Below, in pieces: positions 26,180 to 27,598 of a stretch of DNA of 64,000 nucleotides (position 1 is the first letter of the stretch; each line of letters begins with the position of its first letter). The notes below the pieces were generated by a model. It was not told the DNA's origin. It did not search any database and saw only the letters and a program-made list of their open reading frames with translations. A program made the position numbers and the translations under genes. Source of the stretch: Escherichia phage Pu-Krd-SF3. The stretch lies in sequence record PQ249397; one strand, given 5' to 3'.

Positions 26180-27598
26180 ATGACTTTTACAGTTGATATA
26201 ACTCCTAAAACACCGACAGGGGTTATTGATGAAACCAAGCAGTTTACTGCTGCACCCAGTGGTCAAACTGAAGGTGGAACTATTACCTATGCTTGGAGCG
26301 TAGATAATGTTCCACAAGATGGAGCTGAAGCAACTTTTAATTACGTATTAAAGGGACCTGCCGGTCAAAAGACTATTAAAGTAGTTGCAACAAATACAGT
26401 TCCAGAAGCTGAAGCTGAAACAGCAGAAGCTACTACAACTATCACAGTTCAAAATAAGACACAAACGACCACCTTAGCTGTAACTCCTGATAGTCCTCCA
26501 GCGGGAGTAATCGGAACCCCAGTTCAATTTACTGCTGCCTTAGCTTCGCAGCCGCCAGGAGCATCTGCTACATATAAATGGTATGTTGACGGTTCTCAAG
26601 TTATTGGAGAAACTAATGCTACGTTCAATTACACTCCAACTACAAGTGGAGTAAAAATAATTAAATGCGTAGCCCAAGTAACTGCAGAAAATTACAATGA
26701 AAAGGAAGTTACTTCGAATGAAGTATCTTTGACTGTTAACAAGAAAACACAAACGACTACCCTAGCTGTAACTCCTGCTAATCCTGCTGCCGGAGTAATC
26801 GGAACAGCTGTTCAATTTACAGCCGCTTTAGTTTCTCAACCTGATGGAGCATCTGCTACGTATCAGTGGTATGTAGATGATTCACAAATTAGTGAAGCAA
26901 CTTCCGCTACATTTAGCTATACTCCTACTGCAGTTGGAGTTAAAAAAATTAAATGCGTAGCCCAAGTAACAGCAACGGATTATGACGCAAAAACAGTTAC
27001 TTCTAATGAAGTATCATTAACGGTTAATAAGAAGACAATGAATCCACAGGTTACATTGACTCCTCCTTCTATTAACGTTCAACAAGATGCTTCGGCTACA
27101 TTTACAGCTAATGTTACTGGTGCACCCGAACCGGCACAAATTACTTATTCATGGAAGAAAGATTCTTCTCCAGTAGAAGGATCAACTAATGTATATACCG
27201 TTGATACTTCATCTGTTGGAAGTCAAACTATTGAAGTGACTGCCGTCGTTACTGCAGATGACTATGATAGCAAAACTATTACAGCAGAAGGTCAAGTTCA
27301 AGTGACTGATAAAGTTGCTCCAGAACCAGAAGGTGAATTACCTTATGTTCATCCTCTTCCACACCGTAGCTCAGCTTACATCTGGTGCGGTTGGTGGGTT
27401 ATGGATGAAATCCAAAAAATGACTGAAGAAGGTAAAGATTGGAAAACTGAAGATCCAGATAGTAAATACTACCTGCATCGTTACACTCTTCAGAAGATGA
27501 TGAAAGACTATCCAGAAGTTGATGTCCAAGAATCGCGCAATGGATACATCATTCATAAAACTGCTTTAGAAACTGGTATCATCTATACCTATCCATAA
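26180..27598 (+). CDS. hoc: Hoc, highly immunogenic outer capsid protein, with four Ig-like domains
   Basis: 472 aa; two 96-aa tandem repeat units plus related flanking domains; conserved C-terminal capsid-binding tail; T4 Hoc is about 376 aa as recalled. Confidence 0.85.
   Translation: MTFTVDITPKTPTGVIDETKQFTAAPSGQTEGGTITYAWSVDNVPQDGAEATFNYVLKGPAGQKTIKVVATNTVPEAEAETAEATTTITVQNKTQTTTLAVTPDSPPAGVIGTPVQFTAALASQPPGASATYKWYVDGSQVIGETNATFNYTPTTSGVKIIKCVAQVTAENYNEKEVTSNEVSLTVNKKTQTTTLAVTPANPAAGVIGTAVQFTAALVSQPDGASATYQWYVDDSQISEATSATFSYTPTAVGVKKIKCVAQVTATDYDAKTVTSNEVSLTVNKKTMNPQVTLTPPSINVQQDASATFTANVTGAPEPAQITYSWKKDSSPVEGSTNVYTVDTSSVGSQTIEVTAVVTADDYDSKTITAEGQVQVTDKVAPEPEGELPYVHPLPHRSSAYIWCGWWVMDEIQKMTEEGKDWKTEDPDSKYYLHRYTLQKMMKDYPEVDVQESRNGYIIHKTALETGIIYTYP
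26456..27031 (+). repeat. Tandem duplication of a 288-bp Ig-domain-encoding unit within hoc
   Basis: Units 26456-26743 and 26744-27031, about 80 percent identical; both begin KTQTTTLAVTP and end VSLTVNK. Confidence 0.8.

Follow-up and report, generated by a model that had tools for sequence, protein, structure and literature searches.

Tandem copies of the second Ig-like domain in the Hoc protein of Escherichia phage Pu-Krd-SF3 and their counterparts in related phages

The hoc gene of Escherichia phage Pu-Krd-SF3, as found in the 64,000-nucleotide stretch of DNA analysed here (hereafter the window), encodes a 472-residue protein, and a preliminary description made from the letters alone had read part of it as an extra Ig-like domain arranged in tandem. 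This raises the questions of whether the additional domain is genuine, whether it distinguishes this phage from T4 and its relatives, and how such a copy might have been gained. The evidence assembled below indicates that the protein is very probably a naturally occurring allele of T4-family Hoc, and a common one, in which domain 2 occurs twice in tandem within the order D1-D2-D2'-D3, followed by a conserved capsid-binding domain.

The hoc gene and its neighbourhood

The features referred to throughout are as follows, with positions given in window coordinates and the basis of each assignment in brackets.

25490..26170, plus strand: inh, inhibitor of prohead protease, upstream neighbour of hoc (ORF list, record annotation)
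26180..27598, plus strand: hoc coding sequence, 472 aa plus stop (ORF list, T4 Hoc homology, record annotation)
26180..26455, plus strand: Ig-like domain 1, aa 1-92 (aligns to T4 Hoc 1-92; AlphaFold beta-sandwich, pLDDT about 90)
26456..26743, plus strand: first copy of the domain-2 unit, aa 93-188 (repeat searches, unit HMM; Pfam PKD at aa 99-171)
26744..27031, plus strand: second copy of the domain-2 unit, aa 189-284 (repeat searches, unit HMM; aligns to T4 Hoc 99-194)
27032..27319, plus strand: Ig-like domain 3 and the short linker after it, aa 285-380 (Pfam Ig_3 and I-set at aa 289-373)
27320..27595, plus strand: C-terminal capsid-binding domain, aa 381-472 (near-identical to T4 Hoc 285-376)
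27603..27618, plus strand: terminator-like hairpin, AGGGGC TTCG GCCCCT and then a T-rich tail, 5 nt past the hoc stop (consensus scan)

The coding sequence is a 100% match to positions 58180-59598 of PQ759884.1 (Escherichia phage Pu-Krd-SF4, a phage of E. coli B from piglet faeces), in which it is annotated as 'Hoc-like head decoration protein'. Its earlier identification as hoc is well founded, with a phmmer search of the PDB matching the T4 Hoc chain 5vf3_Z at E = 3.9e-248 and the capsid-binding tail being nearly identical to that of T4. The phmmer alignment falls into two stretches, in which aa 1-169 correspond to T4 Hoc 1-169 and aa 195-472 to T4 Hoc 99-376, and the single second Ig-like domain of T4 aligns to both window units. 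Outside the extra domain, the protein is about 90% identical to T4 Hoc. Both 5vf3_Z and GenBank X14869 ('hoc protein (AA 1-376)') give T4 Hoc as 376 aa, so the length given for T4 in the preliminary description was right and the window protein is indeed longer; T4 Hoc has three Ig-like domains rather than four, and the extra 96 aa are the second domain-2 copy. The computed pI of the 472-aa protein is 4.63, and an acidic pI has been reported for Hoc homologues (PMC10385173).

Around hoc, the gene order is uvsW.1, uvsW, inh, hoc, two small ORFs (24.3/24.2), rnlB, gene 24 and gene 23. Judged from the ORFs and the record annotation, canonical T4 synteny holds at this locus, and the same order of Pfam-labelled genes recurs in the metagenomic locus L002, whose inh orthologue matches the Pfam Phage_Inh families. 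The coding sequence at 23928-25439 on the minus strand and the adjoining upstream 76-aa coding sequence (L001 1493-1723) are both annotated 'DNA helicase' in the record; by the Pfam labels in L002 they are UvsW and UvsW.1, which adjoin each other in T4 as well.

The stop codon of inh overlaps the Shine-Dalgarno sequence of hoc (TAAGGA at 26168-26173), and the hairpin at 27603-27618 resembles an intrinsic terminator. The T4 late promoter TATAAATA had no plus-strand match at 25400-26180, upstream of inh and hoc, and a sigma-70 scan gave fewer sites than shuffled sequence, so no promoter is claimed. A 70-aa minus-strand ORF inside the repeat (26540-26752) was unsupported and was treated as spurious. 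Neither tRNA genes nor Rfam families were found across the whole 64-kb window.

The tandem repeat and the domain architecture

Within hoc, Tandem Repeats Finder detected one array with a period of 288, which spans 26459-27037 in 2.0 copies without indels (78% matches, score 717), and a second repeat search returned two 288-nt copies at 77% identity. The two 288-bp units that the preliminary description had placed at 26456-26743 and 26744-27031, at about 80% identity, are confirmed to the exact coordinate, with in-frame identities of 78.1% for DNA and 77% for protein. To gauge what chance alone would give, 288-nt in-frame self-matches within hoc were scored at every other offset; the best reached 47%, and the repeat is therefore far beyond chance. 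Divergence between the units (dS 0.81, dN 0.14, dN/dS 0.17) indicates that both are old and have been kept as folded modules.

The same divergence bears on whether the repeat is an assembly artefact in which one domain-2 unit was mistakenly doubled, since assembly errors can arise at tandem repeats of any kind. However, the copies differ at 22% of their bases and share no identical in-register run longer than 24 nt, so that short reads place uniquely; the reading frame is intact, and the low dN/dS likewise argues against an artefact. Moreover, the 1419-bp architecture recurs in numerous phages that were sequenced independently (PST, phiD1, wV7, HP3, PhiZZ30 and AndreasVesalius, among others), in dozens of independent genomes overall, as well as in 29 clusters of 472-aa proteins. 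The probability of misassembly, which had been raised at the outset, is consequently negligible.

The partition of the protein into domains is supported by several lines of evidence. An HMM built from the two domain-2 units matched them at full length with 194 and 189 bits, and matched D1 (at aa 2-82) and D3 weakly, with 32-36 bits, while Pfam PKD, Ig_3 and I-set were all above their cut-offs. In an AlphaFold model based on an alignment of 37 homologues, four beta-sandwich domains are predicted at about aa 1-91, 93-187, 189-283 and 290-376, with pLDDT of about 90 or more. Foldseek searches of the PDB with this model returned four-Ig ectodomains (ICAM-5 D1-D4, Sidekick Ig1-4 and Dscam1) together with the RB49 Hoc fragment 3shs. 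Owing to the shallow alignment, the C-terminal domain was modelled poorly (pLDDT below 50), and it was for that reason assigned by its sequence identity to the T4 capsid-binding domain, whose structure has been solved by cryo-EM (PMC10385173). In the phmmer alignment of aa 377-472 with T4 Hoc 281-376, a single substitution is visible over the last 96 residues. Across relatives, identity amounts to 96-100% in the capsid-binding domain and 92-98% in domain 3, for which AlphaFold places strands at aa 290-376. Pfam, the unit HMM, AlphaFold and Foldseek therefore agree with the proposed composition of four Ig-like domains plus a capsid-binding tail in 472 aa.

Compared with T4 Hoc (376 aa; PDB 5vf3, 8t1x and 8t9r), the window protein occupies the same locus, is likewise acidic and corresponds residue for residue in D1, D3 and the capsid-binding domain. 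The difference is confined to domain 2, present as a single unit in T4 and as two units, 77% identical to each other, in the window protein, hence the T4 protein being 96 aa shorter. More divergent Hocs, including that of RB49 (3shs), similarly join a conserved capsid-binding domain to a row of Ig-like domains that varies in number (PMC10385173, PMC13435897, PMC11853027), but sequence similarity to them is much lower, whereas the extra domain in the window is plainly recognisable as domain 2 repeated in tandem.

Length classes, unit types and origin of the array

Hoc lengths in related phages, a comparison that the preliminary description had proposed, fall into classes of 376, 472 and 568-570 aa. 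The 120 protein clusters that best match the window Hoc comprise 79 of 376 aa, 29 of 472 aa and nine of 567-570 aa; the remaining three, of 367, 378 and 468 aa, are outliers that can be assigned to these length classes, which contain one, two and three domain-2 units per protein, respectively. The unit HMM gave exactly two full-length matches in the window Hoc and likewise in all 29 retrieved 472-aa cluster representatives. In a phage genome collection, 656 records match hoc, and an evenly spaced sample of the ranking yielded 50 full-length matches. The gene spans about 1419 bp in 23 of these 50, including Yersinia phages PST and phiD1, Escherichia phages wV7, HP3 and AndreasVesalius, and Serratia phage PhiZZ30, and about 1131 bp in the other 27, including T4, RB18 and T2. 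Among sequenced Tequatrovirus-like phages, four-Ig Hocs thus occur about as often as Hocs of T4 length.

With nearly half of the sampled T4-like phages carrying the longer Hoc, the four-Ig form is ordinary, and the unusualness implied by the preliminary description does not survive the comparison. Variation in the number of Ig-like domains of Hoc has also been published (PMC10385173, PMC13435897): homologues contain one to ten Ig-like domains, the Hoc of phage Muldoon (1174 aa) having ten (PMC10385173), and phage PNJ-9 encodes a Hoc without domain 3 (PMC11853027). A literature search returned such general statements on domain number, and no description specific to a domain-2 tandem array in Tequatrovirus Hoc. 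The four-Ig Hoc is an already catalogued length variant; being routine in sequenced T4-like phages and correctly annotated in its record, it carries little weight on its own. The 376-aa Hoc of T4, for its part, represents only one of the three lengths commonly encountered (376, 472 and 568 aa).

Some records in this comparison depart slightly from the expected spans. Several T2 records (NC_054931.1 105474-106590, PV648363.1) have a hoc region of 1117 bp instead of 1131 bp, which the annotation divides among two or three 'Hoc-like' or hypothetical coding sequences; this suggests a frameshifted or otherwise disrupted gene. Four-Ig hoc spans of 1420 or 1430 bp occur among PST (KF208315.1), vB_Sen_BCPSen_003 (PV368562.1), SfPhi01 (LC465543.1) and Ec_YwIITB1 (PQ356294.1), and two of these matches are annotated as two coding sequences; single-base indels or sequencing errors seem to have broken up the gene in these records.

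Although the length of the window Hoc is common, its combination of unit types occurs once among the multi-unit proteins clustered here. The other 472-aa Hocs (PST, phiD1, wV7, HP3, vB_EcoM_G2540 and PhiZZ30) share its length and its four Ig-like domains plus tail, but are only 84-90% identical to it in register. Clustering of 170 domain-2 units at 85% identity gave four main types, A to D, labels that are coarse because the units are mosaic. The multi-unit orders observed were A-B (22 proteins), A-C (3), A-D (3), A-B-D (4), A-B-C (2), A-C-D (2), B-D (1) and the B-C of the window (1). Most other 472-aa Hocs are A-B, whereas the window Hoc is B-C. In all 39 proteins with at least two such units, the types appear in the same order (A, B, C, D) and never reversed. 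Single-unit 376-aa Hocs comprise 61 of type A, 12 of type B and eight of type C. The single unit of T4, read off the phmmer alignment, mixes residues characteristic of both window units; a simple two-block chimera of the two was considered for it and rejected by eye, the pattern being a fine mosaic with no single crossover point.

The closest counterparts of the two window units lie in longer proteins. Unit 1 is 98% identical to the second of three units in the 568-aa Hocs P0002, P0003 and P0007 (96-98% for P0001/P0003), compared with up to 95% for the second unit of common 472-aa Hocs, and unit 2 is 95-96% identical to the third of three units in P0001 and P0003. Among the 568-570-aa Hocs (Escherichia phages UGKSEcP1 and UGKSEcP2; P0001, encoded at L002 in the same synteny), which have one further domain-2 unit, making three, units 2 and 3 of P0001 and P0003 correspond to the two of the window. 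When the first unit of P0001 is left out, protein identity to the window Hoc is 95.8%. At the DNA level, L002 hoc minus 288 nt starting at hoc nt 301-310 is 95.5% identical to window hoc, versus 91.5% and 88.0% when unit 2 or unit 3 is removed instead; among phage records, the nearest hoc of the 1419-bp length reaches 91% identity. Carrying unit types 2 and 3 of the five-Ig alleles, the window gene is probably related to such an allele by the loss or gain of one unit. This correspondence is the minor new detail of the analysis, and it points to gain or loss of units by recombination.

These relationships also weigh on the age of the duplication. The exact allele occurs only in its own record, PQ759884.1, and the next best full-length match is 91% identical, as would be expected if the duplication were recent and private to this phage lineage. 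Such an origin is nonetheless highly improbable, given the synonymous divergence between the units and the fact that each is 96-98% identical to its counterpart in the Hocs of other phages and only 77% identical to its neighbour.

Changes in unit number would most readily proceed through unequal homologous recombination between domain-2 units, the obvious mechanism because the unit ends are conserved (KTQTTTLAVTP ... SNEVSLTVNK). The very active recombination of T4-type phages would favour such gain and loss, and the direction could be either way, by loss of a unit from a five-Ig allele or by gain from a four-Ig allele. A different route would be out-of-register recombination between co-infecting phages with divergent single-unit alleles, which would create a two-unit array in one step, with dS reflecting allelic divergence instead of the age of the array. 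Diverged alleles are available for it, since single-unit Hocs carry all three main types; the mosaic nature of domain-2 units fits recombination between alleles, and T4-type phages are prone to recombine when the multiplicity of infection is high (PMC9271167). The fixed order of types favours one ordered ancestral array with later losses, an argument that is weak because the arrays are phylogenetically non-independent and the clustering is coarse. On balance, this one-step origin is considered unlikely.

Taken further, and tentatively, the domain-2 region might be an ordered cassette array of variable copy number, in which one to three position-specific types stand in fixed order and change by recombination. 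Fibre length and the displayed binding modules would then be tuned in a manner similar to repeat-number variation in bacterial surface adhesins, and the window would hold a rare derivative of a five-Ig allele that retains units 2 and 3 only. No paper on such cassette-array behaviour of Hoc was found in a literature search.

The predicted capsid fibre, its possible function and further repeats

From the near-identity of its tail to that of T4 Hoc, the window protein would be expected to bind as a monomer at the centre of the gp23 hexamer. The fibre would be one Ig domain longer than the 180-angstrom fibre of T4, or about 4-5 nm more by our estimate, and would display one more variable, acidic and potentially glycan-binding module; a literature search found no experimental fibre-length or binding data for any 472-aa Hoc. 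In T4, PNJ-6 and PNJ-9, Ig-like domains of Hoc have been shown to bind mucin glycans, for example fucosylated MUC2 (PMC9271167, PMC11853027). A second, diverged copy of domain 2 could plausibly change reach or binding.

Alternatively, unit number may be a near-neutral length polymorphism that leaves adherence and the interaction with the host unaffected. In favour of this, Hoc is dispensable under laboratory conditions (PMC10385173), Hocs with three and with four Ig-like domains are found side by side in comparable proportions over a range of hosts and sources, and no phenotype has been reported for either. On the other hand, both units are under purifying selection, their low dN/dS indicating that the extra domain is retained as a folded module. 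For domain 2 itself, the literature points to a role in the binding of MUC2, in the case of phage PNJ-9 (PMC11853027), and of E. coli surfaces (PMC10385173), and single substitutions in Hoc Ig domains alter glycan binding (PMC9271167). Neutrality is regarded as less likely than not, but still as a serious alternative.

The length classes are relevant to the use of Hoc in phage display and vaccines and to studies of mucus adherence, because the natural one-, two- and three-unit variants form a ready series in which fibre length and domain number can be set against adherence.

Two shorter tandem repeats were also detected elsewhere in the window. At 57613-57720 on the minus strand, inside the ORF at 57460..59187, a 24-nt unit is repeated in 4.5 copies (72% matches); it falls towards the C-terminus of a 575-aa protein and encodes 8-residue repeats (...VEGNGTILVKGNVTIVVEGNADITVKGDATTLVEGN...). 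This protein resembles the T4 gp5 baseplate hub/lysozyme, and the 8-residue repeats would be consistent with the gp5 beta-helix needle. The other, at 10488-10543, lies near the 3' end of the plus-strand ORF 9782..10645 (287 aa) and consists of 2.3 copies of a 24-nt unit with 90% matches.
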